A stretch of DNA of 43,052 bases from a virus (lineage: Duplodnaviria; Caudoviricetes): IMG/VR virus record IMGVR_UViG_3300044983_000249, positions 1 to 43,052 of that record; one strand, given 5' to 3'. Every line of letters begins with the position of its first letter. Positions within the stretch are counted from its first letter, which is position 1. The notes under the pieces are model-generated. The model saw only the letters and a list, made by a program, of their open reading frames with translations. It had not been told where the DNA came from and ran no database searches. The translations under genes were made by a program, and so were the position numbers. This document shows positions 1-43,033 of the stretch, piece by piece.

Positions 1-127
1 GCGGGCCTGCGGTATCACAAAGTAACCCCCCCCCCCCCCCCCAAGCGGATAAGTAATCCGCGCGGTCGGCGTTGCGATCTGGGCTGCCCGAATCGGGGGC
101 CCGAATGAGCGGTGCACTCGAGCAATT
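1..127. repeat. Terminal direct repeat, left copy (circular-assembly overlap)
   Basis: Bases 1-127 are identical to 42926-43052, including the C17 tract; 127 is a common assembler k-mer size. Confidence 0.95.
26..42 (+). repeat. C17 homopolymer tract (same locus as 42951-42967)
   Basis: 17 consecutive C in both terminal copies. Confidence 0.95.
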
Positions 128-521
128 CCCGCTCCTGATGGCCGCGCTCAAGGACGAGCTCCGTGCCGAGCTCATCCTCGAGATGCGCAAGGGACTCTGG
201 TTCGATCAGGGACCTGGGCCGCAAGCGTCCATCCTCGGGCGCAATCGCCACGTGCAGGCCTGCCAGAGGCTCATCCGCAAAGACAGCCCCGACGCCTACT
301 ACGATGCCTCGACGGGCCAGTGGTGGCTCCGACAAGGCGCGGTCGATCGGGAGATCCTCCGGCTGAACCGGAAGCAGGCGCAGAAGCTGCCCGAGAAGGC
401 GGTCCCGATGGCTCCGGTGGCAGCCGAGCCCCTTCCCCTGGCCAAGGCCGAGCCGGTGGACTTCGAGGGCGAGACGGGCGTCTACGAGCGGGCGCTGCTC
501 CAGAGGGTGGGGCTGCGATGA
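105..521 (+). CDS. Hypothetical protein, possible excisionase-like DNA-binding protein
   Basis: ATG at 105 (MSGALEQ...); small gene just upstream of int; ATGA overlaps at both ends. Confidence 0.55.
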   Translation: MSGALEQFPLLMAALKDELRAELILEMRKGLWFDQGPGPQASILGRNRHVQACQRLIRKDSPDAYYDASTGQWWLRQGAVDREILRLNRKQAQKLPEKAVPMAPVAAEPLPLAKAEPVDFEGETGVYERALLQRVGLR

Positions 522-814
522 TCCAGCCACTGCTTCGTGGCAGCTGCATGGACTACGACGCGATCGTGGCTCGCGCCGTCGAGATGGCCCGCAAGAGCCC
601 CGACGAGGTGCGCCGCATGAACCTGAGCCCCCGCGAATCCTGGCAAGTGGCGCTCGCGGCCGCATCCCTCGGGGCGGGCCCCTCCCACGAGCTGACCGAT
701 GAGCTCTTCGAAGCCGTGCTCGACTTTGGAACGTTGGCCTTTGGCGAGCCCTGTTCCACTCCGGAACCGGCTTGCGTCGCGTCCAACGTGGTTCAGCTTC
801 GAGGGAAGCTATGA
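518..814 (+). CDS. Hypothetical protein
   Basis: MIQPLLRGS...; ATGA overlap with the previous gene and with int. Confidence 0.6.
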   Translation: MIQPLLRGSCMDYDAIVARAVEMARKSPDEVRRMNLSPRESWQVALAAASLGAGPSHELTDELFEAVLDFGTLAFGEPCSTPEPACVASNVVQLRGKL

Positions 815-2583
815 CCCTCACTCCCAAGCGCACCGGCTTCGAGATCCGCCTCCGGTTCGGCAAGGGCCAGCGCGACCGGTTCACGCTCTCGACCCTCGAC
901 GAGGCCCTGGCGCTCGCGCTCGAGCCGCGCATGGAAGCGATGGCCCGCAAGCTCGCCGACGCCACGAGCGACAAGGCGCGCGAGCAAGCGCATGGCCTGC
1001 TCAAAGAGGCGTGCCTCGTCGCGAGCGATCCGAAGAAATTCGCCGCCGTCGAACGGGTGGTGAGCAAATTGTGTGCGGAGGCGGCTGCTGACACCCCCCC
1101 GGCGGTCGCCTCCGCGCCTTCTACGTTTGCCGAGGTGGTGGACGAGTGGTGCTCGGGACGGCTCCGGGAGCAATCACCCGACCACGTGAAGGAGAAGACC
1201 CCTCGTGGACGGAAGATCGACCGGGCCACGCTCGCGGTGTTCCTGCCCGTGCTCGGTCGGTTGCCCATGGGCGAGATCACCGACGAGCAGATCGCGGAGG
1301 CCAAGCGGGTCATCCCCTCTGGACTCGACCCTGACACGCGCCGGCTTTACCTCGTCCGTCTCCGGACCGTGTTCAAGCTGGCGATCAAGCCGCTCCGGAT
1401 CCTCCGCGTCCTTCCGGACGAAATCACCGACGTGCCCCAGATCAAGAAGCGCAACCTGTTCTGGTTCCTTTACCCCGACGAGGATGCCCAGGTGCTCGGT
1501 TGCCACCTCATCCCGCTCGCCTATCGGATCCTCTACGGCTGGCTCAATCGCAACGGGACCCGCATCACCGAGACCTCGATGCTCGACTACGCTCACCTCG
1601 ACTTGGTCCGGGGACGGGTCCGGCTCGAGGCGAGCTGGACCAAGACGGGCCGCGCGCGCTTCTGGGACCTCGAGCCCGACGTGCTCTCTGCCATGCAGCT
1701 CTGGCGAGACCTCGACGGCAAGCCGGGCCCGACGGCGAGGGTCTTCCACACCCCTCGGGGCACGCAATACGACCCCTCCACGGTGAGTCACCGGTTCCTC
1801 TCTGACCTTCGCCTGGCGGGAGTCGACCGGGACGAGCTCCACATCACGACCCCCGGCAGCCGGCGCCTTCGGGTCCACGACACCCGGGCGACCTTCTGCA
1901 CGATGGCCCGCCGGCGCGGCATGCCCGTCAGCTGGATCATGGATCGGTCAGGCCACGAGAGCGCTGCCGAGCTCGAGAAGTACTCGCGCTTCGTCCGCCA
2001 CGCCGACGAGCAGAGCTTGCCCGAGTGGTTCGCTCCGCTCGATGAGATCATCCCCGAGCTCTTCGCGGAGAAGTCCCGCCTGGGTGGGCCAAGGGTGGGC
2101 CAACGGGTGGGCCAGGTTTCACGGCCAAGCAGAAAACAAGCCCCCCGCGAGCGCGTAACATACTCCATCGCGGAGTCGCGCTCTGGGCAAATCCAGTCAT
2201 CGACTCCGCAAAAACCTGCTGAAAATGCCACTTCAGTAACCGCCGATACCCCACTTTGGCCCACCTCGGGCCCAGCTGAATTTAAGGGGGTGGGCCAAGT
2301 TGGCCCACCCTTGTCCACAGAAGTGGAGGTTGTCCCGTCCTCCGTCGGGGGGGTGGGCCAGGTTTTGGACACCTGTCCAGCGCCCACCGGTGACCCCGTC
2401 GAGGACGCCTTGGTGCGCATCGAGGAGAGCTTGGCGGAGGACTTCAAAACCCTCGTCAACGCCGGTCGGTACGAGCTCGCCGACAAGGTGTGGGCGGAGC
2501 TGAGGGACCGGCGCCTGCAGCGGTCTGCCCCCGCGGTGACCTCTCTCGCCGATGCCCGGCGCAAGCGGGAGGAGAAGCCGTGA
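811..2583 (+). CDS. int: Tyrosine recombinase/integrase with ~200-aa C-terminal extension
   Basis: Catalytic motifs GTRITE (R), WTKT (K), HDTR (HxxR), SGHES (H), EKYS (Y at 1981-1983); start ATG 811 after GAGGGAAG. Confidence 0.93.
   Translation: MTLTPKRTGFEIRLRFGKGQRDRFTLSTLDEALALALEPRMEAMARKLADATSDKAREQAHGLLKEACLVASDPKKFAAVERVVSKLCAEAAADTPPAVASAPSTFAEVVDEWCSGRLREQSPDHVKEKTPRGRKIDRATLAVFLPVLGRLPMGEITDEQIAEAKRVIPSGLDPDTRRLYLVRLRTVFKLAIKPLRILRVLPDEITDVPQIKKRNLFWFLYPDEDAQVLGCHLIPLAYRILYGWLNRNGTRITETSMLDYAHLDLVRGRVRLEASWTKTGRARFWDLEPDVLSAMQLWRDLDGKPGPTARVFHTPRGTQYDPSTVSHRFLSDLRLAGVDRDELHITTPGSRRLRVHDTRATFCTMARRRGMPVSWIMDRSGHESAAELEKYSRFVRHADEQSLPEWFAPLDEIIPELFAEKSRLGGPRVGQRVGQVSRPSRKQAPRERVTYSIAESRSGQIQSSTPQKPAENATSVTADTPLWPTSGPAEFKGVGQVGPPLSTEVEVVPSSVGGVGQVLDTCPAPTGDPVEDALVRIEESLAEDFKTLVNAGRYELADKVWAELRDRRLQRSAPAVTSLADARRKREEKP
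2082..2360. promoter_or_regulatory. Putative attP: seven GGGTGGGCCA-type arm-binding repeats inside int
   Basis: Direct copies at 2082, 2093, 2105, 2288, 2351 and inverted copies at 2257-2265 and 2301-2310, flanking a less GC-rich spacer with inverted repeats. Confidence 0.7.
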
Positions 2584-2798
2584 AACGCCAGACCATCCAC
2601 TCGCGCCTCTACCAGACCACGCTCGCCGTCTATCGCGAGATTGCCGCCCTGACCCCGCGGCAGAGACGCGCTGCTCTGCGTGAGCTCGACAAGCTCACCC
2701 ACACCAATTGCGGGTGGCACCTCTACGCGATGCGTGAGCCGCTCCGGGAGTTCATCCGGGTGGCGGCGCCCAGGCACGCTCGAAAGGAGAAGTCATGA
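2580..2798 (+). CDS. Hypothetical protein
   Basis: GTG start overlapping the int stop (GTGA), SD GGAGGAG. Confidence 0.65.
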   Translation: MKRQTIHSRLYQTTLAVYREIAALTPRQRRAALRELDKLTHTNCGWHLYAMREPLREFIRVAAPRHARKEKS

Positions 2799-2998
2799 CC
2801 TTCCCCGCCCGTCAGCAACCGAGCCTCCACCACCCGCCCGGGGAGCGCTTCGGCCTCGTGCGCGTCATTGGCCCCGCTCCCTCACGGGGACGCGGCCGGC
2901 GCTGGCTCATTCGCTGCGAGTGCGGAAACGAGCGCGTGGTCGACGGCTTCTCGCTCCGGCAGCGACCGCCGAAGACCCACCGGAGATGCAAGAGGTGA
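2795..2998 (+). CDS. Small Cys protein resembling the N-terminal domain of AP2/HNH homing endonucleases
   Basis: GERFGLVRVIG...WLIRCECGNERVV pattern; no nuclease domain follows. Confidence 0.65.
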   Translation: MTFPARQQPSLHHPPGERFGLVRVIGPAPSRGRGRRWLIRCECGNERVVDGFSLRQRPPKTHRRCKR

Positions 2999-3105
2999 CG
3001 ATCCGGTCCCCGCACCCCGCCGATCTGGCGGTCTGTTTCGCGATCACGGTCCTGCTACTGTGCACAGTCGCAGGCATCGCCGTGAGCTTTCTGGTGAGCC
3101 GGTGA
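2995..3105 (+). CDS. Small membrane protein
   Basis: GTGA overlaps at both ends; hydrophobic LAVCFAITVLLLCTVAGIAVSFLV. Confidence 0.55.
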   Translation: MTIRSPHPADLAVCFAITVLLLCTVAGIAVSFLVSR

Positions 3106-3293
3106 GCTTCGCTTATCGCGCTCGCGCCTGGTGGAAGACACCTTCGCCGCCTCGCCCGCGGCCCATGCTGAACCCGCTGCCCATCGAGCCACTCTGCGCG
3201 CCCACGCCTCGGCCGCTGCCCGAATCGAACGATAGCGTCCGGACCATTCGCGCGCTCGAAGCGCAGATCCAATCCCCGAAGGAGAACCCGTGA
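3102..3293 (+). CDS. Pro-rich hypothetical protein
   Basis: GTGA-coupled ORF (SFAYRARAWWK...). Confidence 0.5.
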   Translation: MSFAYRARAWWKTPSPPRPRPMLNPLPIEPLCAPTPRPLPESNDSVRTIRALEAQIQSPKENP

Positions 3294-3478
3294 CCATCAA
3301 ACCCAAGCGCAAGCGCAAGCTCGATTCCCTCCACGTCCGGCTCGATGAGACCCGCGAGAAGAAGCTCACGGCCATCATGGACCACTTGGCGTGCGTGGCC
3401 GTGGAGGTCAACCCGTCGCAGGCCATCCGGTACGCGATCGATCGGGCCTTCGAGCGGATGGAGAAGCCGGCGGCATGA
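3290..3478 (+). CDS. Ribbon-helix-helix (Arc/CopG-like) DNA-binding protein
   Basis: 62 aa; SLHVRL beta strand, helix, then NPSQAIRYAID helix. Confidence 0.65.
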   Translation: MTIKPKRKRKLDSLHVRLDETREKKLTAIMDHLACVAVEVNPSQAIRYAIDRAFERMEKPAA

Positions 3479-4317
3479 TCGGACGCATCCGGACCGTGAA
3501 GCCCGAGATCTTCTCCGACGAGAAGCTATGGGACCTGAGCGTGGAGACGGGTCTGCCCCTGCTCCAGGCGTTCGAAGGCCTCTGGTGCTACGCGGACCGG
3601 GAGGGTCGCTTCGAGTGGCGCCCTCGGGCTCTGAAGACGCTCATCCTGCCCTATTGGGAGGGGGACTTCGCCCGTGCCCTGGAGGCGCTCGAGCGAGCCC
3701 GCTACGTGGTCCGCTACACGGTCGATGGGCAGACCTTCGGAGTCGTGCGGAACTTCGCCAAGCACCAGCGGGTGAACCTCCGGGAGGCACCGTCCGCTCT
3801 CCCGCCTCCACCCGCCACGACAACGCACGTGCATGCACGTGCAGAGCTGTCACCCGTGCCGGAATCGTCAACGACCGTGGATCGTCCTGCACGTGGGGAA
3901 GGGAATGGAACGGAACTGGAAGGGAAGGGAGTGGGAACGGAACTCGCGCGCGCGCCCGTGGAAGTCCCTGGACTCGAGATCGTCTACCCCGGACCGCTCC
4001 AGCCCTCGAAGCGCGAGCGTCGACTCGATGCGCAAGCGCTCGCGCTGAACCAGCTCATCCACAAGTACCCGCCCGACTTCGAGCCCACCAAGGCCAACCA
4101 GGTGCGCGGTCACGAGCTTGGCTTGACCGACGAGGAGATCTGGCAGCGCTGGTTCGAGAGCAAGGAAAAGCTCTACCCGCACGGGTTCGATGACCCCGAG
4201 GCGCAGTTCAACCGTGAGCTCGCCTGGGCCAAGGCCGACAAGGAAAAACGCATGTTCAAGACCCGATCCGAGCGCGACGCGTTCGAGACGCCGGGGCGGG
4301 AGAGGAGACCGGCGTGA
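3475..4317 (+). CDS. Phage replication initiator (replisome organizer)
   Basis: N-terminus GRIRTVKPEIFSDEKL...LWCYADREGRF...NFAKHQR typical of phage initiators; central GEGNGTELEGKG low-complexity linker. Confidence 0.8.
   Translation: MIGRIRTVKPEIFSDEKLWDLSVETGLPLLQAFEGLWCYADREGRFEWRPRALKTLILPYWEGDFARALEALERARYVVRYTVDGQTFGVVRNFAKHQRVNLREAPSALPPPPATTTHVHARAELSPVPESSTTVDRPARGEGNGTELEGKGVGTELARAPVEVPGLEIVYPGPLQPSKRERRLDAQALALNQLIHKYPPDFEPTKANQVRGHELGLTDEEIWQRWFESKEKLYPHGFDDPEAQFNRELAWAKADKEKRMFKTRSERDAFETPGRERRPA
3825..3943. promoter_or_regulatory. Putative replication origin within the initiator gene
   Basis: Perfect 18-bp palindrome GCACGTGCATGCACGTGC (3825-3842), another GCACGTG near 3889, then a purine-skewed GGAA repeat run (3896-3943). 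Confidence 0.45.
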
Positions 4318-4895
4318 GCGAAGCAATCGAAGCCTACCCGCTGCACTGGCCCGATGGGTGGCCGCGGCGACAACGACACCAGCGCAGCGCGAGTGACTAC
4401 CGCGTGACCTTCGGGCGCGCGCGGGACGAGTTGCTCCGGGAGCTGACGCTCGGGCGGGCTCGGCACGTGGTCATCTCGAGCAACATCCCGCTCCGGCGTG
4501 ACGGACTCCCTCTCGCCAACATGCGCGAGCCTGAGGATCCGGGCGTCGCCGTCTACTGGAACGACAAGAACGGCAAGCCGCGGGTCATCGCGTGTGATGT
4601 CTGGCGCACGGCTCGGGAGAACCTCCGGGCGATCGGTCTCGCGTACGCCTCGCTTCGCCAGATCGAACGCACGGGAGCCAGTGAGTTGCTCGAGCGCGCG
4701 TTCCAGGGCTTTGCCCGGTTACCCGCCGCGGCCGACTGTTGGAGCGTCCTCGGTGTTCAGCGCGGCGCCACTCGCGAGACCATCAGTGAGCGCTTCCGTG
4801 AACTGGCCATCCAGCACCACCCCGACAAGGGGGGCGACGCCAACACGTTCAAGCGCATCACCGAGGCCTACCACCAAGCGATCGGGGCGTCATGA
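4314..4895 (+). CDS. J-domain (DnaJ-type) protein
   Basis: C-terminal WSVLGV...HHPDKGGD...FKRITEAY J-domain; N-terminal AYPLHWPDGWPR phage-type domain. Confidence 0.88.
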   Translation: MSEAIEAYPLHWPDGWPRRQRHQRSASDYRVTFGRARDELLRELTLGRARHVVISSNIPLRRDGLPLANMREPEDPGVAVYWNDKNGKPRVIACDVWRTARENLRAIGLAYASLRQIERTGASELLERAFQGFARLPAAADCWSVLGVQRGATRETISERFRELAIQHHPDKGGDANTFKRITEAYHQAIGAS

Positions 4896-5245
4896 CCGAC
4901 GAAGAAATCCAAGCCGCCCTCGGCCCGCAACCGAAGCGCGTTGCCCCACCGATGAAGACCCGCCCGGTCTCGGAAGTCCTCGGCTGCTCGGATGACCACG
5001 CCCTCGCAATCGCCCAGAGCAAGGGCCTCATCGACAGGGACAACATGCTGCGCTGTTGGCACTGCAAGGCGATCTGTGACTGGCACGTGAGCCTGCACTG
5101 CTTCGACTGCCGAGCAGGAGCCCCGGCGCGCAAGCGGGAACGCGAGCAGCAGGAGCGCGAGCGGGCAGCGGCAGAGCGGCGGGAACAGGAACAGTCGAGG
5201 CCCGTGCAGAGGGTCTCGGGAAGGAGCTTTCGCGATGGGTACTGA
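4892..5245 (+). CDS. Hypothetical Zn-finger/coiled-coil protein
   Basis: CWHC...CFDC motif; ATGA overlap. Confidence 0.6.
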   Translation: MTDEEIQAALGPQPKRVAPPMKTRPVSEVLGCSDDHALAIAQSKGLIDRDNMLRCWHCKAICDWHVSLHCFDCRAGAPARKREREQQERERAAAERREQEQSRPVQRVSGRSFRDGY

Positions 5246-5408
5246 GCACGAAAGCGGGCTGACGATTCTGAACGGTGGCGATGAGTTCTACCGGACGGCG
5301 CCGCTCTGGAAGGTCACCGATCCACGCGACGGCCAAGAGTATCTCGTCCACGAATTCACCGCATGGGCAGCAGAGGAGGAAGCGGATGAGCTTCTCGGAC
5401 TGGTCTGA
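5235..5408 (+). CDS. Small acidic hypothetical protein (57 aa, not in the ORF track)
   Basis: MGTEHESGLTILNGGDEFYRTAPLWKVTDPRDGQEYLVHEF...; SD AGGAG; fills the gap in the coupled operon. Confidence 0.6.
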   Translation: MGTEHESGLTILNGGDEFYRTAPLWKVTDPRDGQEYLVHEFTAWAAEEEADELLGLV

Positions 5409-6489
5409 AGCGCTTCCGTTTGCGCTGCGCATTGGCAAAGCCTACGCGCGCAGAGGGCCACTCAAGCTCGACGTCGAGTCTGCGGTGATGGAGGCTCTCT
5501 GGAGGGCGCAGCGGGCAGGCAATGACCTCTCTCGTGGGTACGTGGCCATGCGCGTCAAGGGCGCGCTCATCGACGAGATTCGACGGGTCTCAGAGGGACA
5601 GCGCCGCAACCCGCAAAGCGTGGGTTCGTTCGTGGACATCGACGACCAGCGCGATCTCTCGGCACCGAGCCATGACATCGATGAGCTGCTCGACCAGCGA
5701 CGCAAGTTCGACGCGATGCCTGGTGCCGCACAGCAACTCATCACACGCCTGGCGCATGGCGAGCAGCAGAAGGAGATCGCTCGGTCGCTCGGGGTGAGCG
5801 CGCCTCGTGTCCACCAGGTGACGCATGCCCTGCGAACCAACCCGAATGGGCTGACGCGCCTACCGGGGCACGTGGACCTGTTCGAGGAAATCCGCCGTGC
5901 GCACCGACGGATGGTGACCCGCGCCTATTCAGAGACCGGAACCGTGACCGGGGTAGCCCAGTCGCTCGGGGTCAGCATGAGCGACGCGAGCCGTTGGGTG
6001 AACCAGCGCAAGCTCATTCTGCCGAGCAAGTTTCGCGACTTTCCGGAACTGCGCGAGAAGGCTCGCAAGCTGGTCCACTCCGCATTCGTGCGGGCCAACG
6101 GATCGCCCATGACCGCGTCCCGCCTGCTCTCCACCGAATGCAGCATGGCGAGTGTTCTCGGAAGAGAGTTCGCTCCTGACGTGGTGCGCAGCAACCGGCG
6201 CCCGGACATCACGAGGGACGACGTCGCCCGCCTCTGTCGCGAAGGCTGGAGCCAGGAGCGAATCGCTTCTCACTTCGGGGTGAGCGAGCACGCCATCGCC
6301 AACCGCGTCCGCCATGGGCGGCTTCCGACGCTGCTCAGGACCCGACCCGACTTGCCCGACACCGCCTTTGCCGAACTGCGCGCCCAAGGGCTCAAGCATC
6401 GAGAGATTGCAGCGAGCCTGGGTGTCAGCATGGCCACCGTATGCGTGCGCCTCCGCCGGGCGCGACCCCTCAGGAAATGCCAGCCATGA
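5386..6489 (+). CDS. Sigma-70-family (FliA/sigma-28-like) protein fused to multiple HTH domains
   Basis: Region 2-like YVAMRVKGALIDEIRR; region 4-like QKEIARSLGVSAPRVHQ; further HTHs VAQSLGVS, SQERIASHFGVS, HREIAASLGVS. Confidence 0.75.
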   Translation: MSFSDWSEALPFALRIGKAYARRGPLKLDVESAVMEALWRAQRAGNDLSRGYVAMRVKGALIDEIRRVSEGQRRNPQSVGSFVDIDDQRDLSAPSHDIDELLDQRRKFDAMPGAAQQLITRLAHGEQQKEIARSLGVSAPRVHQVTHALRTNPNGLTRLPGHVDLFEEIRRAHRRMVTRAYSETGTVTGVAQSLGVSMSDASRWVNQRKLILPSKFRDFPELREKARKLVHSAFVRANGSPMTASRLLSTECSMASVLGREFAPDVVRSNRRPDITRDDVARLCREGWSQERIASHFGVSEHAIANRVRHGRLPTLLRTRPDLPDTAFAELRAQGLKHREIAASLGVSMATVCVRLRRARPLRKCQP

Positions 6490-7103
6490 ACACCGACCAC
6501 GTCCAGTGCTACACCTGCGAACTCAGCTGCAACAATTGCGGTCTCGCGCCCACGTTCGAGCCCATGCCCGCGGCGACGCTGAGCGATGTCATCCGGGGCT
6601 TCCTGCTCATGCACCGACGGTGTGAGAAGCCGGTCGAGCCGAGCAAACAAGTCGAGATCTTCGATCGACTGGCCGCGAAGGAGCCGGACACGTACGCGCT
6701 CCCCGATGAGCCGGGCTTCCGTGATCCCGAGCACGACCCGGAGCCCGAGCACGACCTTCCCGCCCTCACCGACGAGGACGACGCCTTCGGCAGGCGCTAC
6801 CCGATGGCACGGGATCACCTGAGCCTACGGATGAACCTGGAGGTGGTCCTCCAAGGCCCTGCCCCTTCTACCGAACAGCTCGCGGTGTACCCGGTCGGCT
6901 CGCCCGAGTTCGACACCATCGCTCACTGGACCCGGATGCAACTGGCCGAGATGAACAAGCGCAGCCACCCGGAGTTCGATGTCTACCTGCCGAATCCGCC
7001 TCAGCCCATGCCAAAGGTCCTCAAAGCGCTGATGAAGCCGAAGCGCGGGGTGAGGCCACTGAGCTCACCGAGGAAGCGCCGGACCACCGTGGAGGCACCG
7101 TGA
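6486..7103 (+). CDS. Hypothetical protein with N-terminal Cys cluster
   Basis: ATG 6486 (ATGA overlap); CYTCELSCNNC. Confidence 0.65.
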   Translation: MNTDHVQCYTCELSCNNCGLAPTFEPMPAATLSDVIRGFLLMHRRCEKPVEPSKQVEIFDRLAAKEPDTYALPDEPGFRDPEHDPEPEHDLPALTDEDDAFGRRYPMARDHLSLRMNLEVVLQGPAPSTEQLAVYPVGSPEFDTIAHWTRMQLAEMNKRSHPEFDVYLPNPPQPMPKVLKALMKPKRGVRPLSSPRKRRTTVEAP

Positions 7104-7273
7104 CTGCCCATCCGCGCACCGCGCATCCGCCCGGGAGCAAGACCCAGTGCAAGCGCTGCCCGCGCGTGTTCAGGCGGAGGCGCGGCCGACGCTTCTGCAT
7201 GGTCTGCTCCGGCTATCGGATCCCGAAGCGTCTACGCGACGAGCTCGCGCGCAATCCGAGGGAGACTCCGTGA
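7100..7273 (+). CDS. C4 zinc-finger microprotein, paralog 1 (not in the ORF track)
   Basis: ...TQCKRCPRVFRRRRGRRFCMVCSGYRIPKRLRDELARNPRETP; GTGA overlaps. Confidence 0.7.
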   Translation: MTAHPRTAHPPGSKTQCKRCPRVFRRRRGRRFCMVCSGYRIPKRLRDELARNPRETP

Positions 7274-7434
7274 GCGCCCGTAAGAAGGTCAGTGGCACTC
7301 GGGCTCAATGCCCGCGCTGCCCGCGCACGTTCCAGCGCCGGCACGGTCGGCGGTTTTGCATGGTCTGCAGCGGGAGCCGGCTCTCGAAGCGCCTCCGGAG
7401 CGAGCTGGCGAGGAACCCGAGGGAGACGCCGTGA
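7270..7434 (+). CDS. C4 zinc-finger microprotein, paralog 2
   Basis: ...AQCPRCPRTFQRRHGRRFCMVCSGSRLSKRLRSELARNPRETP. Confidence 0.7.
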   Translation: MSARKKVSGTRAQCPRCPRTFQRRHGRRFCMVCSGSRLSKRLRSELARNPRETP

Positions 7435-8117
7435 GCGGCGGAGGCAAGCGCGGCGAGATCCGCGTGAGAAAGGCCGGGCCAACGCCGAAGCAGGCGGGCG
7501 GCACGCATAACCGCAAGGCTCGGCGAGCGAGCAAGGCGACCCAGCGCGAGCTGTTCACACCGGCGCCCTTCGACGCGGAGGCATTCGCTCAGAAACGAGA
7601 GGCTCGTCGCCGAGCCGCGCGAGAAGCCTTCTGGGCGGGCCAGACCGACGCGGATATCGAGGCCCTGTCACTCGAGCAGAGCGAGCGAGAGTCCGGCGCA
7701 CTCGGTGGGCAGTGGTTTCTCCCGCTGTTCCTCGACGCCGTACCCCGTTGGGCAACCCGACATTTCACGACGGACCCAGATGCGCGGGTCAAGCGCGCTC
7801 ACGAACTCGGCGAACTGCTCGCCTACTCACAGGGTGCCGCTGCCGTCGTCGACCCGGACGCGCGCGGAACGGAGCATGAGGGCGACGTCGCTGAGATCTT
7901 CAATGCCGTTGCCGAAGGGCTCGCGATCGGCGCCTATTGCCCCGGTGGCACTCCGGGCTTCTCCGGGATGAAGTGGGAGGTCGTTGGTAACGAGCTACGC
8001 CTGACACACGGGCGCTTCTGCGCGCGCTACCCGGTGAACGACCCGGGTTACTGGGACACCGAGCCGTGTTCGAATCTCATCGAGGCGACACTCATCTACG
8101 CGGCGGAGGCCGGGTGA
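7431..8117 (+). CDS. Hypothetical protein
   Basis: GTG start overlapping the previous stop; GC-rich third codon positions. Confidence 0.65.
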   Translation: MSGGGKRGEIRVRKAGPTPKQAGGTHNRKARRASKATQRELFTPAPFDAEAFAQKREARRRAAREAFWAGQTDADIEALSLEQSERESGALGGQWFLPLFLDAVPRWATRHFTTDPDARVKRAHELGELLAYSQGAAAVVDPDARGTEHEGDVAEIFNAVAEGLAIGAYCPGGTPGFSGMKWEVVGNELRLTHGRFCARYPVNDPGYWDTEPCSNLIEATLIYAAEAG

Positions 8118-8869
8118 ATATCGAGAGTCACATGCACGCGATTACGAGTGCTGCCCGTATCGTCAAAAGCGCGCACCGGTCGCACCCGTTTGAGGTGGCG
8201 GACCTCGTGTCGATCGGCGCCGAGCGGGTGATCCGGTACCTCTCCGGATCGGAAGGCGCAGCGGGTGCTCTCGTGTTCGTATGCGCCAAGCAAGGCATGC
8301 TCTACGAGCTACGACGCTGGCAGGGGCGGGACCCGCACGGGCTCCAGGGGGAGAAGCGGCGCAAGTCGGCGGACCCGGTCCTGACCGGGTACCACGAGTG
8401 GATGGGGCTGGTCCCGACGCCGCCCTATGAGACTCTGATCGATCTGAAGCGCGCACTCCTCGCCATGCAGCTCCGGGAGGCGGTGTCCTGGTACTCCCAC
8501 CACTGGCTCTGCGAAGAACTCGACCACTTGGAGAATGAGCTCGGCGTGAGCGAGGGCCGGATCCGCCAATACTGCGCGGCTGCCAAAGAGAAGCTCCAGG
8601 CAGCATGGCGGGGCGAGCGCTTCGAGACGGCGGACGAGGCCAGCGCGCGCAAAGACGCCGAGACCCAAGAGACTGTCCGGAGGCGCTCAGCCGCCAACGA
8701 GAGAATGCTCACCGAGCGCAAGACGCGCTACGCGGAACTCCGGGCGATGGGCGCCGACAGTAAGCAAGCTGCCTGGGGCGGGGCTGCCAAGTCGCGCTAT
8801 CGGATCATAGCCAACAGGCTCAGTCGTCCCATTCCGGGAATCGACACCGACCCGAGCAACGTAGCTTGA
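8114..8869 (+). CDS. Second sigma-70-family (FliA-like) protein
   Basis: DLVSIG and AKQGMLYELRR (region 2-like); IDLKRAL...ELGVSEGRIRQY...AKEKL (region 4-like). Confidence 0.7.
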   Translation: MNIESHMHAITSAARIVKSAHRSHPFEVADLVSIGAERVIRYLSGSEGAAGALVFVCAKQGMLYELRRWQGRDPHGLQGEKRRKSADPVLTGYHEWMGLVPTPPYETLIDLKRALLAMQLREAVSWYSHHWLCEELDHLENELGVSEGRIRQYCAAAKEKLQAAWRGERFETADEASARKDAETQETVRRRSAANERMLTERKTRYAELRAMGADSKQAAWGGAAKSRYRIIANRLSRPIPGIDTDPSNVA

Positions 8870-8911
8870 ACGTGACTACGTTTGCGTAATACTAATGAGG
8901 TGAGCCAGACC

Positions 8912-9106
8912 ATGCCCCGCCACAAGTTCCTGTTCAGCAACCGCGCCGCGCAATCGGCCGAGGCCCTCCGCAACGCGAAGGAAGCCAAGGACCTGGCCGT
9001 CAAGTGGGCCCCGAAGCGCACGGAATCCGAGCAGCCCGAGACGACCGCGGCCGGAGCCTGCTTCCGGAACGTGACGCGGATCCTGGCCGGCAAGGGGGCC
9101 AAGTGA
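8912..9106 (+). CDS. Hypothetical protein
   Basis: ATG after GAGGTG; first gene after an AT-rich intergenic gap. Confidence 0.55.
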   Translation: MPRHKFLFSNRAAQSAEALRNAKEAKDLAVKWAPKRTESEQPETTAAGACFRNVTRILAGKGAK

Positions 9107-9294
9107 GCCTGAACCGCGAAGACTTCGAGCCGGTCCACGTCGAGACCTGCTCCGGTTGCGGTGCCACGTTGGGCCAAGAATGCATGTCGTGCCCGAACTG
9201 CGACGGTCCTTGCCCTCACTGCGACGACGAGCCCGCGTGCCCCTTCCACTCCTCCGGCAACCAAGGCCGCTGCAATTACTGCGAGGACCAATGA
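9103..9294 (+). CDS. Cys-rich microprotein
   Basis: CSGC, CMSCPNC, CPHC, CNYC. Confidence 0.6.
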   Translation: MSLNREDFEPVHVETCSGCGATLGQECMSCPNCDGPCPHCDDEPACPFHSSGNQGRCNYCEDQ

Positions 9295-9617
9295 CCCGCT
9301 TCGCTCTCGAATTCATTCCCCGCCGCTCCTGGCAACAGGACGTGGACCCGGCCGATCAACGCTGGACCCGCACCCCCAACATGTTCAGCGGCACCGAGGC
9401 AGAGGCCACGCTCGAATGCTCGGAACTCGAGGCAGCCTATGACCGTCAGGTCACCTTCCGCGCCGTGCCCCTCGAGACGCTCGATTCCGAGCACCACTAC
9501 TGCTCGGGATGCGGCGGTGACTACCGCGAGCGCATGGGCCATCCACTCGCCTGCACCTGCCCCCTGGCCATCGCCTCGACGAGTGGAGTCCGCTGGACGG
9601 AGGAGAAAGCGTCGTGA
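9291..9617 (+). CDS. Hypothetical protein with CSGC motif
   Basis: ATGA-coupled ORF MTRFALEF... Confidence 0.6.
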   Translation: MTRFALEFIPRRSWQQDVDPADQRWTRTPNMFSGTEAEATLECSELEAAYDRQVTFRAVPLETLDSEHHYCSGCGGDYRERMGHPLACTCPLAIASTSGVRWTEEKAS

Positions 9618-9811
9618 AGGCCACCGCCTGTCCCGGTTGCGGCCAAGCGCCGCAGGCCCGCACCTGGCACCACGGCTACTTGGTCCGGTGTGCCGACTGT
9701 TACGACCCGACGCCCGACGAGAGCGGGGACGCGGGAGGCGACGTGTCCGGATTCGGCATCAGCCTGGATTCGGCACTCGAGGACTGGAACGCCAACGTGG
9801 AGGGAACATGA
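9614..9811 (+). CDS. Zn-ribbon microprotein (Lar-like pattern)
   Basis: CPGCG...VRCADC...ALEDWN. Confidence 0.6.
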   Translation: MKATACPGCGQAPQARTWHHGYLVRCADCYDPTPDESGDAGGDVSGFGISLDSALEDWNANVEGT

Positions 9812-10011
9812 GCAACGACGACGAGCGAGAGCCCGAGTACCTGGGCGACGGGGTGTATGCGACCTTCGACGGCTACCACGTGTGGCTGACCACTGGGTCA
9901 CACGAGCGCGCCGACGCCAGCAACGCGATCGCGCTAGACCCCGGCGTGTTCAACTCCCTGGTTCGGTACCGCAACCGCGTGAACAAGGCCGACGACTTGG
10001 AGGGGACGTGA
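9808..10011 (+). CDS. Conserved phage hypothetical protein
   Basis: YLGDGVYATFDGYHVWL motif, recalled from small phage proteins. Confidence 0.65.
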   Translation: MSNDDEREPEYLGDGVYATFDGYHVWLTTGSHERADASNAIALDPGVFNSLVRYRNRVNKADDLEGT

Positions 10012-10096
10012 CCGCGCGCATCGACCCGATCGAGCGGCTGCTGCGGATCCTCTGGGGCTACGAGAAGCGCCCTCCGCGCGTGGTGGAGGTGGCGTC

Positions 10097-10372
10097 ATGA
10101 AGTTCGCTTGCCCCTTGGATGAGCTGCAACACTGGCTCGGCCTACTCGAGGTGGACCTTCGCCTGGGAGTCGCCCGCCGGCACGTCGAGGCCACGGCGCG
10201 GCTCTGTTGGCTGCTGGTCGACAAGCTGGAGAAGGATCCCAAGATGGACCAGGAGATGTTCACGCTCCTGAGCCTCCGCCTGCTCGACTTGCAGCGGCAG
10301 ATGTCACCGGTGAAGCCGGGGCCGAAGGGGAAGCCGGAGGGTGGTCCGCGGCTGTCTCTGGTGCCGCGCTAG
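10097..10372 (+). CDS. Hypothetical protein
   Basis: ATG after GGAGGTG; ends LSLVPR. Confidence 0.6.
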   Translation: MKFACPLDELQHWLGLLEVDLRLGVARRHVEATARLCWLLVDKLEKDPKMDQEMFTLLSLRLLDLQRQMSPVKPGPKGKPEGGPRLSLVPR

Positions 10373-10386
10373 GGCGTTTCAAAGAG

Positions 10387-10448
10387 GCGAGCAATCTCAG
10401 GCTCGCGCGAGCGGAACAGGCTGAAAACAAGCCTGTTCGTGATAACCT
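10387..10448 (+). promoter_or_regulatory. Intergenic hairpins plus extended -10 promoter upstream of the recombination genes
   Basis: Palindrome GCTCGCGCGAGC (10401-10412); inverted repeat GAACAGGCT/AGCCTGTTC (10414-10438); TGnTAACCT at 10440-10448. Confidence 0.45.
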
Positions 10449-10464
10449 ACGGGAGGAGCGAATC

Positions 10465-10989
10465 ATGGCACAAGACAAGTTCGAATCACGCGACGAGGAC
10501 CTGGGCGCGACCGATTGGCGCGCGTACTTTGACTCGAGCTGCTTTCGCGTCTGGCACCTCGGCGGCAAAGAGCGCACGTTCAAGATCGGCAAGGTGACGC
10601 GCCTGACGAGCGAGATGGTCAACGGGGGCAAGCGCGAGATCAAAAAGCAGCCGAAGCTCGAACTCCTCGATTCCAAGGGCAACCCGCTGCCCCTGCCGCT
10701 CCTCTTGAACAAGACGAACGCGAAGACGATCGCGCGCCTCTACGGCAACAACCCGAGCGCCTGGACCGGCAAGCTCATCACGCTGTTTCCGGCCACGACC
10801 AGTGTCGGCGGCGAGGACGTGGACTGCATCCGGATCCGGAACGAGACCCCGAAGCGCACGGCCAAGCCGAAGCCTGCCGCCGCTCCCGCACTCACCAATG
10901 GCCACGACGACGGCCCGCTCCCGCGCGAGCCCGGAGACGACACCGACGAGCCGCCAATCGGGGTCCTCGAGAGCGATCATGTCCAGTAA
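10465..10989 (+). CDS. Putative ssDNA-binding/annealing protein
   Basis: LLLNKTNAKTIARLYG...WTGKLITLF...CIRIR core; acidic C-tail; adjacent to the exonuclease. Confidence 0.6.
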   Translation: MAQDKFESRDEDLGATDWRAYFDSSCFRVWHLGGKERTFKIGKVTRLTSEMVNGGKREIKKQPKLELLDSKGNPLPLPLLLNKTNAKTIARLYGNNPSAWTGKLITLFPATTSVGGEDVDCIRIRNETPKRTAKPKPAAAPALTNGHDDGPLPREPGDDTDEPPIGVLESDHVQ

Positions 10990-11764
10990 CGACAACACGA
11001 GCCTGCTCGACCCGGTCCGCTTCTCGCGCCTGAAGCTCATGGGCAGGAGCGCGGCCCACTACGCGCACGGCAAGACGGACGAGACCGCGAGCATGCGCAA
11101 GGGCACGGCCGTGCACAGCTACCTGCTCGGGGACACCGACCGGGTGAAGGTCTACGACGGCAAACGGGACGCGCGCACCAAGGCGTACCAGGCGTTTCTC
11201 GAAGCCCACCCGGACTGTGACATCCTCTCCCCGCGGGAGTCCGTGGACGTGGAGGGGATGCGGCAGGCGCTGCTCCGCCACGAGCGCGCGACCGAGCTCC
11301 TCGACGGCATCCGGGAGCAGCGCATCGAGTGGACCCTCTCCGGGCGCGCGTGCGCGGGTACCCCTGACGTAGTCCGGCTCAATGGCGACGGTACCAAGGT
11401 CCTGGTCGAGTTGAAGACCGGGCAGAGCTCGGCGCCCGACCTGTTCCGGTGGCAGGCGCGCAAGCTTGCCTATCATGCCCAATTGGCGTGGTACGCCCGC
11501 GGGCTCGAAACGGCACTCGTGTATAAACCGGGCCCGGTCGTCGAGCAATACATCGTGGCCGTCGAGAGCTCTCCGCCCTATCCCGTGACCGTGTTCCGGG
11601 TGACGGACGCGCTCCGGCTCGCGGGCGACAAACAGTGCCGCATCTGGTTCGAGCACCTGCTCGTGTGCGAGCGAACCGGCAACTGGCCCGGGTACGTCGA
11701 GTGCGACGTGGAGCTCGACGAGGACGAGGTGGAGCTAGAATGGGATGACGAGGCGGCGGCGTGA
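10979..11764 (+). CDS. PD-(D/E)XK exonuclease (RecE/ExoVIII, DUF3799-like)
   Basis: GTAVH, GTPD, VELKT, YHAQLAWY, WPGY motifs. Confidence 0.85.
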   Translation: MSSNDNTSLLDPVRFSRLKLMGRSAAHYAHGKTDETASMRKGTAVHSYLLGDTDRVKVYDGKRDARTKAYQAFLEAHPDCDILSPRESVDVEGMRQALLRHERATELLDGIREQRIEWTLSGRACAGTPDVVRLNGDGTKVLVELKTGQSSAPDLFRWQARKLAYHAQLAWYARGLETALVYKPGPVVEQYIVAVESSPPYPVTVFRVTDALRLAGDKQCRIWFEHLLVCERTGNWPGYVECDVELDEDEVELEWDDEAAA

Positions 11765-12600
11765 CCGAACCAGTCGAGACCATCGGGGCCCTGCAGCACC
11801 GGTGCGAGTCGGTGGAGACCGAGTTGCGCGAGACCGCCGGGGAGCTGGAGAAGGCGCGGGCGCGCATCACAGAACTCGAACAGGGCACGCTGCCGGCACC
11901 GTTCACGGTGCGCATGGTGCGAGATCAGCAGTGGGAACTTGTCCCGCCCGGGAGCAAGTCCCGCCTCGCCGAAGCGACCGCGCTGCTGGTCGAGTGCGTG
12001 GGCCATATGCCTCTGGAACTGGACAACCGCGTGGTCGAGTGGATTGAATCCTCCCGCGCCCCAGCGCAGCCCACTCAAGCCTGGCACGTGCGCGGCAAGT
12101 CAGTGGAGTTAGGGCCCGCCGCACCGGAGCTATATCGAGATGAGGAAGGCCACGCATTGTTCCATAGCGCCCGGGCTTCACACCCCCATTGTCGCCTGTG
12201 CAATGGTTGGGGCGCACCGCAACCGGGGCCATTCAGCGACATAGACGTTAGCAAGTGTATCGACCCAACCATCCCGGACGGCTACGTGCGCGTTGACGGC
12301 AAGCTGTTGAAGTGGCCCGCCGCACCGGAGCCTCACTACGCCGAGCAGTTCGGCATCAATCCCGCGCCCGGATTCGTGCAGGACTTCGGCTTGGAAGCAG
12401 AGTTTCGCAACCACGCCAAGACGATTGCTGACCTCGAATCCGCCCGCGCATCGGAGGCGGCACTCAGGGAGCGGGTGGAGAAGGCGCTGGCAAAGTACGG
12501 CGCGGACTCTCTGCGAGCTGATGACGCTGGACGCTTGACGATGGCAGTGCGCAGGGCCCTCACCGCCGACCCGACGGGGCAGGAGGGGGAACGTGGCTGA
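11761..12600 (+). CDS. Mosaic hypothetical protein
   Basis: 279-aa ORF with coiled-coil ends and an internal 18-bp direct repeat. Confidence 0.6.
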   Translation: MTEPVETIGALQHRCESVETELRETAGELEKARARITELEQGTLPAPFTVRMVRDQQWELVPPGSKSRLAEATALLVECVGHMPLELDNRVVEWIESSRAPAQPTQAWHVRGKSVELGPAAPELYRDEEGHALFHSARASHPHCRLCNGWGAPQPGPFSDIDVSKCIDPTIPDGYVRVDGKLLKWPAAPEPHYAEQFGINPAPGFVQDFGLEAEFRNHAKTIADLESARASEAALRERVEKALAKYGADSLRADDAGRLTMAVRRALTADPTGQEGERG

Positions 12601-12925
12601 CCCGAAGGCGCCGGATGTGGCGGACGAGGAGGAGGCAGACCCCGGTCCCTACTTCTGTTTCTGCTGTGACAACGCGGATGTCACCAGGTGCGACGAGGAC
12701 CGCTGCTGCGTCGAGTGCGGTATGGATCTCGTACCGCTGTCGCAAATGCGCGAGCTGCTGCGCTCCGCCCATGGCCTGCACATCGTGAGCGAGGCGGACA
12801 AGCGGGTGCTTGATGCGATGGCCGCACTCCACATCGACAATGTTAGGTCGTACGACCACGAGTCGAACAAGCGCCATTGGGAATACCCGGCAATGATGTC
12901 CGAACTCGCCCGGAGGAAACCATGA
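12593..12925 (+). CDS. Cys-rich hypothetical protein
   Basis: CFCC...CCVECG. Confidence 0.6.
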   Translation: MADPKAPDVADEEEADPGPYFCFCCDNADVTRCDEDRCCVECGMDLVPLSQMRELLRSAHGLHIVSEADKRVLDAMAALHIDNVRSYDHESNKRHWEYPAMMSELARRKP

Positions 12926-13128
12926 CCGAGAAACGGCGCGCGCCCGAGGATGACGAGGGCGGGTTCTGGCTGCGAGAGCGCTGCTACAAATGCGGGCATC
13001 GGCTCGCGTTTGCAGCATCAGCATGCCCACAATGCGGCATCGAGTTTGCCCACGGAGACGACCCGAAACGTTGGCCCGACAGGTGCGAGTGTAAGCGCTG
13101 CGATGCGGCCAGAAAGGCCGTGTCATGA
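12922..13128 (+). CDS. Zn-ribbon microprotein
   Basis: CYKC...CPQC...CECKRC; ATGA overlap. Confidence 0.6.
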   Translation: MTEKRRAPEDDEGGFWLRERCYKCGHRLAFAASACPQCGIEFAHGDDPKRWPDRCECKRCDAARKAVS

Positions 13129-13676
13129 CCGAACGACGGAGAGCACCTCTTGAGGTGCTGGAGCGGTTGGCGGAGGCGGTGAATGAATTCTGGGACAGGC
13201 CCGAGGACAGCAAGCCTCTGCACACGGTCCGGGTTGCCTTGAATGCCTACCGCGCGGCCACGGCCCCGCTCAGGACCGAGACGGCGGTTGTCCTGGACAT
13301 CGGCCACCACGTGCGCGCCTGCGTACGACTCGGCGAGCTCCGGATGACGGCTGACGAGAAACAGCGCCTGGAGGACTTGGCAAACGAGCACACCGCGCCT
13401 GCTCCCGAGAAGCCCCCGCTCCGGGTCCACGATCTGCGGGCCACCTTTTCCGGGTCCGGCTCCGATGAGCCCGAGGCCTGTGGCTGCGAGGAGGCCGAGG
13501 CGCTGAAGCGTGAACTCCGCGGGTGCCAGGCCTCGCTCACGAGCCGGACCTGTGAGGCAAAGGATGCCTGCCAGAAGCTCCTGGACATCCGGACCGAGTG
13601 CGAGCTCCGGGCGGGGCGCAAGAAATCGAGCGGGGACGCGCTCTACGCGATCCTGGAGATCCTCGACCGGCCATGA
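13125..13676 (+). CDS. Hypothetical protein containing an integrase-like LRVHDLRATF peptide
   Basis: 183-aa coupled ORF. Confidence 0.6.
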   Translation: MTERRRAPLEVLERLAEAVNEFWDRPEDSKPLHTVRVALNAYRAATAPLRTETAVVLDIGHHVRACVRLGELRMTADEKQRLEDLANEHTAPAPEKPPLRVHDLRATFSGSGSDEPEACGCEEAEALKRELRGCQASLTSRTCEAKDACQKLLDIRTECELRAGRKKSSGDALYAILEILDRP

Positions 13677-14086
13677 GACACCCCGCGCGCAAGGGACGAG
13701 CCGACTCCAATCAGAAGGCCATCGCCGACGCGATCCGCCTGCTCGGCTACCCGGTGATGGACCTGCACGCGGCCGGTAATGGCGTCGAGGACCTGCTCGT
13801 GGGGCTGCGAAAGTACGATCCGAATTTCGCCCGCTACGACCACTCGTGGCTCCTCGTCGAGTGCAAGGTCCCCCGCTACGAGCTCACCGCATCGACGGCC
13901 GTCCGCTACACCCAGGCGCAGATCGAATGGCGAAAGCAGACCGAAGGCTGGCCCCGGATCACGGTGACGAGCGGGCAGGACGCGGTGAACCAAATCCGGG
14001 CCCTGACGAGCTCACCGAGGCCGAGCGCGCCTTCCGTGCCCTGCTCGGGCGCCCCAAGGACTATGCCCGGTGGGCAGAGAAGGTGA
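13673..14086 (+). CDS. VRR-NUC-like PD-(D/E)XK nuclease (possible resolvase)
   Basis: RADSNQKAIADAIR...GNGVEDLLVG...LLVECK...TQAQIEW. Confidence 0.75.
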   Translation: MRHPARKGRADSNQKAIADAIRLLGYPVMDLHAAGNGVEDLLVGLRKYDPNFARYDHSWLLVECKVPRYELTASTAVRYTQAQIEWRKQTEGWPRITVTSGQDAVNQIRALTSSPRPSAPSVPCSGAPRTMPGGQRR

Positions 14087-14098
14087 GGGCCGGGTGGG

Positions 14099-14278
14099 CT
14101 ATCCGTTCGGGTCGTCGTACGTGAGGACGAGCGTCCCTTGACCGTTGCGGGTCTCGACCAGCTTGATCGCGACGATGGTCCCGGCGAGGAGATCCTTCAT
14201 GAAATCGGCGTAGACGTCCGCGGGCTCGAAGCGCTCGGGGTGGTTGTGGCGGTTGAAGTTCTTGCGTCTCGTTGCCAT
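14099..14278 (-). CDS. Small hypothetical protein (59 aa, not in the ORF track)
   Basis: MATRRKNFNRHNHPERFEPADVY...; TAATG overlap with the upstream gene. Confidence 0.6.
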   Translation of the reverse strand: MATRRKNFNRHNHPERFEPADVYADFMKDLLAGTIVAIKLVETRNGQGTLVLTYDDPNG

Positions 14279-15099: not shown

Positions 15100-15102
15100 T
15101 GC

Positions 15103-15708: not shown

Positions 15709-15710
15709 GG

Positions 15711-42351: not shown

Positions 42352-42510
42352 CTACCGCCGAGGAGGCCTCTTGCCCATCGCCACGAGTCGCGCCCGCTCC
42401 TCTTTCAACAATCGGCGGATGAGATCCGACACGCTCACGAGCAAGTATTCTGCCAAGGCATCGATCTCTGCGTGCTCCTCTGGGGTGACCCGGGCTCGCA
42501 CATAACTCAT
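42352..42510 (-). CDS. Ribbon-helix-helix (CopG/MobC-like) regulator; repressor candidate
   Basis: 52 aa; YVRARVTPEEHAEIDALAEYLLVSVSDLIRRLL; divergent from the early operon. Confidence 0.7.
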   Translation of the reverse strand: MSYVRARVTPEEHAEIDALAEYLLVSVSDLIRRLLKEERARLVAMGKRPPRR

Positions 42511-42886
42511 TGACAGAGAGGTCGTCCCGATGCGGGCGCCTCCGCGTTTTCTCGTAGTCACGTTTGGTCACCATTAGCTTGCGCGACTTATGTTGCGTGG
42601 TCAAACTCACACGGGTGATACCAGAAACCCACATGCGCGTACCGATTCGCGCGAGTGTGTCAAATGAGTCTGGCGCGTTCCGCGATGGTACCGTAAACAG
42701 GTTTCACTCAGTGAGTCGTCGCCAATTGCAATCCCTGCAAACAGGGAGGCGGGCCGCGAAGATCACCGAGTGCCCCGGGCGAGTGCCGCCAATTGCACGA
42801 TATTGGAACGACGGTGTGACCGGCAACGGTGGGCGCCGTTCGGCACTCGGGGTGGGGACGATCAGAGGGGAATAGGGGTTGGCTAC

Positions 42887-43033
42887 ATGACGATCAGGGC
42901 AGCAGCGATTCCGGACGTAGCCGTAGCGGGCCTGCGGTATCACAAAGTAACCCCCCCCCCCCCCCCCAAGCGGATAAGTAATCCGCGCGGTCGGCGTTGC
43001 GATCTGGGCTGCCCGAATCGGGGGCCCGAATGA
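42887..43033 (+). CDS. Putative leader peptide spanning the C17 tract
   Basis: ATG after AGGGG; MTIRAAAIPDVAVAGLRYHKVTPPPPPKR...GPE; its stop overlaps (ATGA) the start of gene 105-521. Confidence 0.45.
   Translation: MTIRAAAIPDVAVAGLRYHKVTPPPPPKRISNPRGRRCDLGCPNRGPE

Follow-up and report, generated by a model that had tools for sequence, protein, structure and literature searches.

In a temperate phage found in soil, the predicted phage attachment site (attP) lies inside the integrase gene (int), and int in turn is one link in an unbroken chain of overlapping, co-oriented genes that runs from the early control region to the replication initiator gene (rep) and on to two sigma-like genes. The reading that we favour, with a probability of roughly 55%, is that development is held by two locks: an early promoter repressed by a ribbon-helix-helix (RHH) protein and, as a second lock comparable to that of Tn916, the splitting of this chain at the int-internal attP when the phage integrates.

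The phage and its host

The window, by which we mean the whole stretch of 43,052 nucleotides that was analysed (IMG/VR record IMGVR_UViG_3300044983_000249), represents a circle of 42,925 bp, its terminal 127 bases being identical at both ends. The source assembly contains no other sequence. A terminase, a head-tail adaptor, a CHAP endolysin and a tyrosine integrase are encoded. The host is likely to be a myxobacterium of the Polyangiaceae, judging from the Int homologs, of which the named bacterial ones come from Sorangium only, and from the genomes of the Polyangiaceae, which contain one member of the phage family and also the same arm-type repeats as those described below. One close relative has been binned in a MAG labelled Elusimicrobia, a placement that we take to be a binning accident.

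A gap-free chain of early genes

The following features make up the part of the early region considered here, and genes are referred to by their start positions.

42887..43033, + strand: leader ORF with a poly-C stretch (proline run), overlapping gene 105 by ATGA
105..521, + strand: excisionase-like gene (phrog_1840 matches in its family; weak likeness of the model)
518..814, + strand: variable cassette gene, no family
811..2583, + strand: tyrosine integrase of 590 aa, its C-terminal tail encoded across the predicted attP (PF00589)
2580..3293, + strand: four small overlapping cassette genes
3290..3478, + strand: small gene, always directly before rep, with an RHH-like pattern recognised by eye
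3475..4317, + strand: replication initiator (phrog_16167, E 2e-35)
4314..4895, + strand: DnaJ-domain protein (PF00226)
5386..6489, + strand: sigma-70 region 4 / multi-HTH protein (family searches)
8114..8869, + strand: sigma-70/ECF-like protein (ESM Atlas features 0.95–0.96 and structure)

Between 105 and 8869 there are 18 genes and 17 junctions, 15 of the junctions being 4-nt overlaps (ATGA or GTGA). The remaining two, at genes 5235 and 5386, are overlaps of 11 and 23 nt, so that the chain is gap-free throughout, and the leader ORF adds a 16th ATGA junction across the circular join. An earlier note on this DNA had described every gene from 42887 to 8869 as overlapping the next, and all of the starts and overlaps that it gave are present; genes 5235 and 5386 were missing from its list of junctions, and since they overlap as well its statement that there is no gap anywhere holds. 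The same note had int co-oriented with rep, a J-protein and two sigma factors. The identities are confirmed for Int, rep, the DnaJ-domain protein and gene 5386, the protein of gene 8114 being sigma-70-like by ESM Atlas features and structure only, with no match in Pfam. Gene 5386 is absent from the near-identical relative L002, and a family search with gene 3290 gave no match. The lowest codon scores in the chain (−5 to +1) belong to ORFs 2795, 3102, 7100 and 7270, yet these have homologs in relatives, and gene 7270 is a paralog of 7100. In the leader, the lengths of the C-run in two pairs of relatives (17/11 and 10/13) preserve the frame. Tight packing extends beyond this chain: many junctions between late genes fall between −17 and +4 nt, and several further 4-nt overlaps are found in 8900–14086.

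In the integrase, the catalytic residues R251, K278, H356, R359, H382 and Y391 show no or almost no variation among 31 sequences. The family of gene 105 has 472 representatives, and 7 of its 76 aligned members match the phrog_1840 excisionase, the best with E 1e-6. A model of the gene 105 product (pLDDT 92) has weak matches to winged-helix proteins of the MerR/Xis type (Z 3.0–3.6); searching Foldseek with the model gave no clear match, and the gene has no match in Pfam or Atlas.

Comparison of the sequences indicates that the layout of the early region is a family trait. The order found family-wide begins with a divergent small DNA-binding gene and the control region, continues with the xis-like gene and int, and leads through exchangeable cassettes and a small gene to rep; the stop codon of int overlaps the following gene in 10 of the 12 loci that were compared. 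The largest gap between int and rep is 41 bp or less in five of the nine distinct relatives that reach rep (L002 being included after the addition of a homolog missed by the gene caller) and 57–211 bp in the other four. These sizes are upper limits, because the caller was home-made and missed weakly coding small ORFs.

The predicted attachment site within int

Three groups of features define the putative attP.

2082..2114, + strand: left arm-type repeats, three direct copies of GGGTGGGCCA
2162..2176, no strand assigned: predicted core ACTC-CATCGCG-GAGT, with the overlap at 2166–2172, at about Int codon 452 (from the arm spacing)
2257..2361, no strand assigned: right arm-type repeats, copies of GGTGGGCCA (at 2257 and 2301 on the − strand, at 2289 and 2352 on the + strand)

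Copies of GGTGGGCCA number eight in the whole genome and seven of them lie within int, between 2083 and 2360, as three direct copies followed by inverted and direct ones. At 84–85 bp before the right arm, this phage and seven close relatives have a short dyad with a spacer of 7 bp, which in this phage is CATCGCG; the 7-mers were chosen by eye and this phage was anchored on its first right arm. The distance from core to right arm is 80–84 bp in relatives that are integrated at tRNA genes. A scan of dyad offsets peaks at 84 in the eight close loci (4.1 against 2.3 ± 0.5), and the signal is weak when all 17 loci are taken together (3.3 against 2.3 ± 0.3). From the arm repeats, the spacing of the core and the integrated relatives, the crossover is predicted to occur near 2166–2172, in the 3′ third of int and ~60 codons past Tyr391. 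The proposal that attP is internal to int is supported by these three lines of evidence, which would place it behind the catalytic domain.

Between the arms, no tRNA fragment was found in this phage or its close relatives, unlike the more distant clade, which carries one in its core. Attempts to read the 7-bp overlap as the anticodon loop or the 3′ end of a tRNA were not convincing.

Integration splits int in distant relatives

Relatives of Int (E ≤ 1e-60) are found in 117 of 401 genomes of the order Polyangiales, a tally that includes the unpublished genome G398, which enters no other result given here. A complete tRNA gene lies directly behind the catalytic domain of Int in 31 of the 41 chromosomal loci that were fetched (31–39% identity), on the opposite strand in 26 and on the same strand in 5. 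Of the ten loci lacking a tRNA gene, three ended early at the end of a contig; the contig of the free form G001 was excluded from the 41. The same arm repeats precede the tRNA in the integrated relatives, and six of nine hits of the arm pattern are the far ends of elements, with a 3′ fragment of the tRNA and inverted arms.

The elements L115 (tRNA-Lys, 46-bp core) and L109 (tRNA-Leu, 53-bp core) each lie in full on a single contig. At one end of both, the N-terminal part of Int runs into the tRNA gene, which gives it a new C-terminus, and at the far end the Int tail is in phase and open as far as its stop codon, which lies within an ATGA. The tail is followed by gaps of about 190–930 bp in the two elements, and beyond it are co-oriented genes for a primase (L115, at 6.4 kb) and a DnaB-like protein (L109, at 2.1 kb). 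The separation suggested in the earlier note, with promoter, xis-like gene and Int at one end of the prophage and the replication genes at the other, is therefore a geometry that is seen in distant elements of the Polyangiales; in the phage itself the crossover that would produce it is a predicted one.

Searches for integrated forms of the same clade

No attL, attR or attB belonging to the phage's own clade was found among the homologs and genomes searched. The integrated form is absent from the 32 best homologs: 31 keep the tail of the free phage (30 were counted by the tail pattern and the tail of P0013 was added by eye) and the other, P0022, differs by a frameshift from a cluster mate that has the tail. 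A profile search of 401 order-level and 383 family-level genomes, two samples that overlap, gave no close integrated copy, and neither did the cluster members together with a second protein search. When the attP DNA was compared with the 383 genomes, no attB was recognised; the hits were mostly to arm repeats, and three hits to the central part that were considered as attB were judged to be due to chance. The arm pattern picked out three free forms in viral contigs and no integrated copy. Searching with rep gave a hit in one of the 383 genomes, a free-form phage with a different integrase. No junction at the core was seen among the matches listed, in eight public runs (the likely source run being covered to 56%), a result that is not evidence of absence.

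Promoters and a candidate repressor

The elements that may control the chain are as follows.

42352..42561, − strand: divergent RHH gene, 69 aa, candidate repressor (PF21983, NikA-like, E 4e-6)
42553..42564, − strand: operator-like 12-mer AACGTGACTACG over the start codon of the RHH gene (exact word count)
42576..42604, − strand: predicted leftward promoter, TTGACC-17-CAAGCT (relaxed scan)
42605..42886, + strand: control region, in which the rightward early promoter presumably lies (conserved non-coding blocks, AT-richer)
8866..8893, + strand: predicted promoter for the recombination genes, TTGAAC-16-AATACT, whose spacer contains the palindrome AACGT-GACT-ACGTT (8869–8882) (relaxed scan)

The RHH protein is likely to repress the early promoters. 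Its match to PF21983 is at the gathering cut-off and is shared by 6 of 7 aligned homologs, PF01402 is matched with E 0.002, and the top Foldseek rows for its product are RHH proteins, all with E > 1, which is weak but consistent. The position of the divergent gene is conserved among relatives, with LexA-type or winged-helix genes taking its place in L008 and L027.

The word AACGTGACTACG has exactly two copies in the window. One covers the start codon of the RHH gene; the other belongs to the palindrome AACGT-N4-ACGTT between the two hexamers of the 8866 site. In L011 the same pair is found with the site flipped, and in L004 and L005 the same two places are paired by different 11- and 13-mers; L003 has no paired word, 94 of 500 shuffles reaching the length observed there. 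Paired words are therefore present in four of the five phages tested, and they are what one would expect of a repressor that regulates its own gene and has a second, distant operator. The observed word length was reached by 5 of 500 shuffles for this phage, 19 for L011, 16 for L004 and none for L005, in a post hoc test for which the word was chosen after being seen and in which the L004 word contains a −10 hexamer. A weak operator-like site with two mismatches (42690–42703) lies in the control region.

A strict promoter scan of positions 1–10000 found none (0.3 expected) and is uninformative. The relaxed sigma-70 scan gave nothing above shuffles between the core and rep in this phage and in five of seven relatives, and no significant site in the remaining two. 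The scan is insensitive and failed to find the main rightward promoter as well, which makes the promoter-free appearance of this stretch a weak result. The hexamers of the leftward promoter are identical in L011 and L022 and do not rise above shuffle level by themselves. The score of the 8866 site was reached by 1 of 30 shuffles, and that of its TACAAT versions in L011 and L004 by none of 30. As this site stays in the arm that carries rep, the split would not silence all of the early genes. The suggestion that integration itself would silence lytic development can be kept in part: the predicted att lies between the inferred promoter and rep, and the genes after 8869 have a promoter-like site of their own.

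Proposed mechanism and alternatives

The two-lock reading starts from the single overlapping chain in which int links the leader to rep and to the sigma-like genes. After a crossover near 2166–2172, one end of the prophage would carry the control region together with the xis-like gene and catalytic Int, and the other end the Int tail and the replication genes. The RHH protein would hold lysogeny by binding the palindrome over its own start, that in the 8866 promoter and probably the rightward promoter. On induction, the rightward promoter would first yield Xis and recombinant Int; excision would then rejoin the operon and the Int frame, and transcription would reach rep only afterwards. The split would act as a second lock, which puts excision before replication and blocks leaky replication in situ, and would not be the lysis-lysogeny decision itself.

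We count in favour of this reading the gap-free chain, the short int-to-rep gaps in five of nine relatives, the clustered arms, the tRNA ends of the relatives, the in-phase Int tails of L115 and L109, the RHH gene with its paired words, the precedent of Tn916 and the lack of a promoter-like site from core to rep in a scan that did find the 8866 site. We count against it the lack of attL, attR and attB from the same clade, the core without a tRNA fragment, the weak dyad over 17 loci, the gaps before rep in four of nine relatives and in Mx8, L115 and L109, the failure of the scan at the rightward promoter, and an operator word that was chosen post hoc and is absent in L003. A stricter form, to which we give somewhat less than even odds, would hold for the myxobacterial phage family: site-specific recombination would strictly gate DNA replication, since integration would cut both the transcript and the coupled Int frame and keep the replication genes unexpressed as long as the phage is not excised, and the minimal RHH repressor would have only xis-int and the recombination promoter to guard.

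The split may instead be incidental, the int-internal attP being a compact, exchangeable module, with rep under its own promoter within the cassettes and an ordinary repressor as the switch. This appears unlikely, though it is the rival that we take most seriously. Such a promoter could depend on a host sigma factor, a phage sigma factor or an activator and could lie, for example, before the small gene 3290. That gene, which is RHH-like and always precedes rep, recalls the copG-rep units, in which a small RHH gene stands ahead of rep, and the gaps before rep in four of nine relatives and in Mx8, with a promoter scan of low sensitivity, fit this explanation also. Gene 3102 has a conserved A-rich 3′ end, which also speaks for this explanation, but different genes follow it in L002 and L011. 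Moreover, relatives freely exchange the genes that lie between int and rep and share no non-coding block there, and the promoter scans found nothing in this stretch.

It is improbable that the clade seldom or never integrates, existing as a circle or lytically, with an att-like region that is ancestral or serves some other recombination. The core without a tRNA fragment and the lack of an integrated form in the 32 best homologs, the cluster members, the genomes and the eight runs searched are as this explanation would have them, but the catalytic residues, the arms, the core spacing and the xis-like gene have been kept across proteins that are 34–59% identical, and the hosts are uncultured and poorly assembled, with rare forms dropped from contigs. 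Very improbable, in our estimate, is a switch in which integration itself decides between lysis and lysogeny with little or no repressor. The gap-free chain would suit it, as would the finding that none of the called ORFs scanned is a CI-type gene (HTH_3 with peptidase), and the earlier note had argued in this direction that integration lessens the need for a repressor. We find no support for that argument: the divergent RHH gene (LexA-type or winged-helix in two relatives) is conserved and accompanied by operator-like sites, repressors are kept by Mx8 and L133 with this same layout, and the 8866 promoter-like site remains in the rep arm. In addition, the promoter in the prophage would still face the xis-like gene and catalytic Int and, unless shut off, would go on making Xis and Int. 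The two-lock reading accommodates a repressor of this kind.

Comparison with known systems

In the myxophages Mx8 and Mx9 attP is inside int, and integration of Mx8 creates a new 3′ end of its int (PMC6070905). The gene order of Mx8 (AF396866) is imm-mox-uoi-int(attP)-p13..p18-p19-p20, with imm, uoi, int, p19 and p20 on one strand. The phage described here resembles it in the predicted int-internal attP, in the common orientation of excisionase, int and replication genes and in its rep, which matches the same PHROG as p19 (phrog_16167). It differs in that the two integrases are only 24% identical over 299 aa, the stretch from int to p19 in Mx8 has gaps of 47, 169 and 57 bp, and Mx8 has, instead of a divergent RHH gene, the co-oriented repressor gene imm, with its late genes on the same strand as well. 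Cores of the Mx8/Mx9 type are part of a host tRNA gene, whereas the core here holds no tRNA fragment. The phage would work like Mx8, and we have not assigned it to the same system. A further case, from a Polyangiaceae genome, is the phage contig L133, which has a CI-like/cro-like pair, a Bro-N gene and an unrelated int with the 5′ half of a tRNA-Leu inside it; its chain leads to a rep that is 63% identical over residues 3–122.

Other systems in which recombination affects a coding sequence correspond less well. In the mycobacteriophages BPs, Brujita and Charlie attP is in the repressor gene, recombination removes a degron and there is no Xis (PMC3694055). The likeness is that recombination inside a coding sequence alters phage regulation; integration-dependent immunity of this type was rejected because the predicted attP here is in int, ~2.5 kb from an uncut RHH gene, and a xis-like gene and arm sites are present. 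In the archaeal suicidal integrases of SSV1, pTN3 and pT26-2 att is inside int, the gene is partitioned and the promoterless C-terminal piece is catalytic (PMC8371274). An arrangement of the SSV type was likewise rejected, since all of the catalytic residues here, up to Y391, would stay on the promoter-proximal side of the predicted crossover. State-dependent int promoters are described for ICEKp1 and ICEclc (PMC13023037), and a 2026 preprint on myxophages reports, in its available part, integrases and repressors in temperate Polyangiales groups without an analysis of att (10.64898/2026.09.14.751636).

The closest parallel to the second lock is the conjugative element Tn916, in which the genes for replication and DNA processing are cut off from the main promoter in the integrated state and rejoined to it in the circle, expression from Porf7 across attTn being dependent on excision, as has been shown experimentally (PMC11658703). 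In both cases att lies between the main promoter and co-oriented replication genes, the positions of att and promoter being predicted ones in the phage. In Tn916, by contrast, att is outside int and a terminator/antiterminator pair is involved; its control is established by experiment, whereas ours is a prediction for a phage in which the cut falls within a translated gene. Variable coupling sequences like those of Tn916 were considered and rejected, as no difference was seen at 2166–2172 among the matches listed (contigs X2, X3, X5 and X9). A 'split-operon' model is said to have been proposed at one time for P2 int.

We found no phage paper in the open-access literature that describes excision-gated control of replication of this kind. 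Neither the layout nor the mechanism is new by itself; it is their combination in a phage that was not found there. If the two-lock reading is true, the layout of the genome would by itself enforce excision before replication in a temperate phage and would prevent replication in situ with the consequent packaging of host DNA. The int-internal attP of Mx8 would then gain a function beyond the tuning of Int, and it is in Mx8 that the idea can be tested.

Integrase and att core

When the near-identical relative L002 is compared with the window (L002 10300–11400 against window 1110–2250), the differences between the two phages fall in the att core and in two Int domains, core-binding and catalytic; the Int N-terminus and right arms are identical. 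The divergent domains together with the att core form a swapped specificity module.

2170–2209: stem GCGGAGTCG...CGACTCCGC, sharing bases with the predicted core

At this stem the window carries an 11-bp insertion with respect to its close relatives, a size equal to one helical turn.

Among the integrated relatives, the tRNA 3′ of int is on the same strand in five (L039, L040, L051, L056 and L060) and on the opposite strand in 26. The same-strand cases suggest that some members may carry the tRNA 5′ half.

Leader run, repeated word and accessory genes

42951–42967 (= 26–42): poly-C run inside the leader ORF
4314–4895 (+): DnaJ-domain protein, adjoining rep
7100–7434: two small Cys-rich ORFs, tandem paralogues with the same ends
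34470–35240 (−): GroES-like domain (PF00166, phrog_3188), late region

The leader run has 17 C in the window and 11 in L002 and in the public sequencing runs X2 and X3; its lengths in the relatives L005 and L006 are 10 and 13. The length differences within these two sets are multiples of 3, so the xis-like gene is coupled to a proline run whose length varies. The word GGTATCAC occurs at four distinct window sites (14600, 39974, 42615 and 42936; 0.34 expected), two of them within or close to the control region and another in the late/lysis inter-gene gap, and is a possible second regulatory motif.

The ORF pair at 7100–7434 is one example of cassette duplication via shared junction sequences. 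The phage codes for both a GroES-like domain and a DnaJ-domain protein.

Related elements in Polyangiales genomes

L115 (G565:C197), 486–18254: complete 17.7-kb satellite-like element in tRNA-Lys, split int
L109 (G287:C272), 976–15159: complete 14.2-kb satellite-like element in tRNA-Leu, split int
L133 (G526:C331), 2354–18297: phage

A homolog of a window tail gene is present in L115. In L133 a tRNA-Leu half is internal, and there is a CI-like/cro-like switch. The int-before-rep layout is common to L133 and the window phage; their integrases are unrelated.
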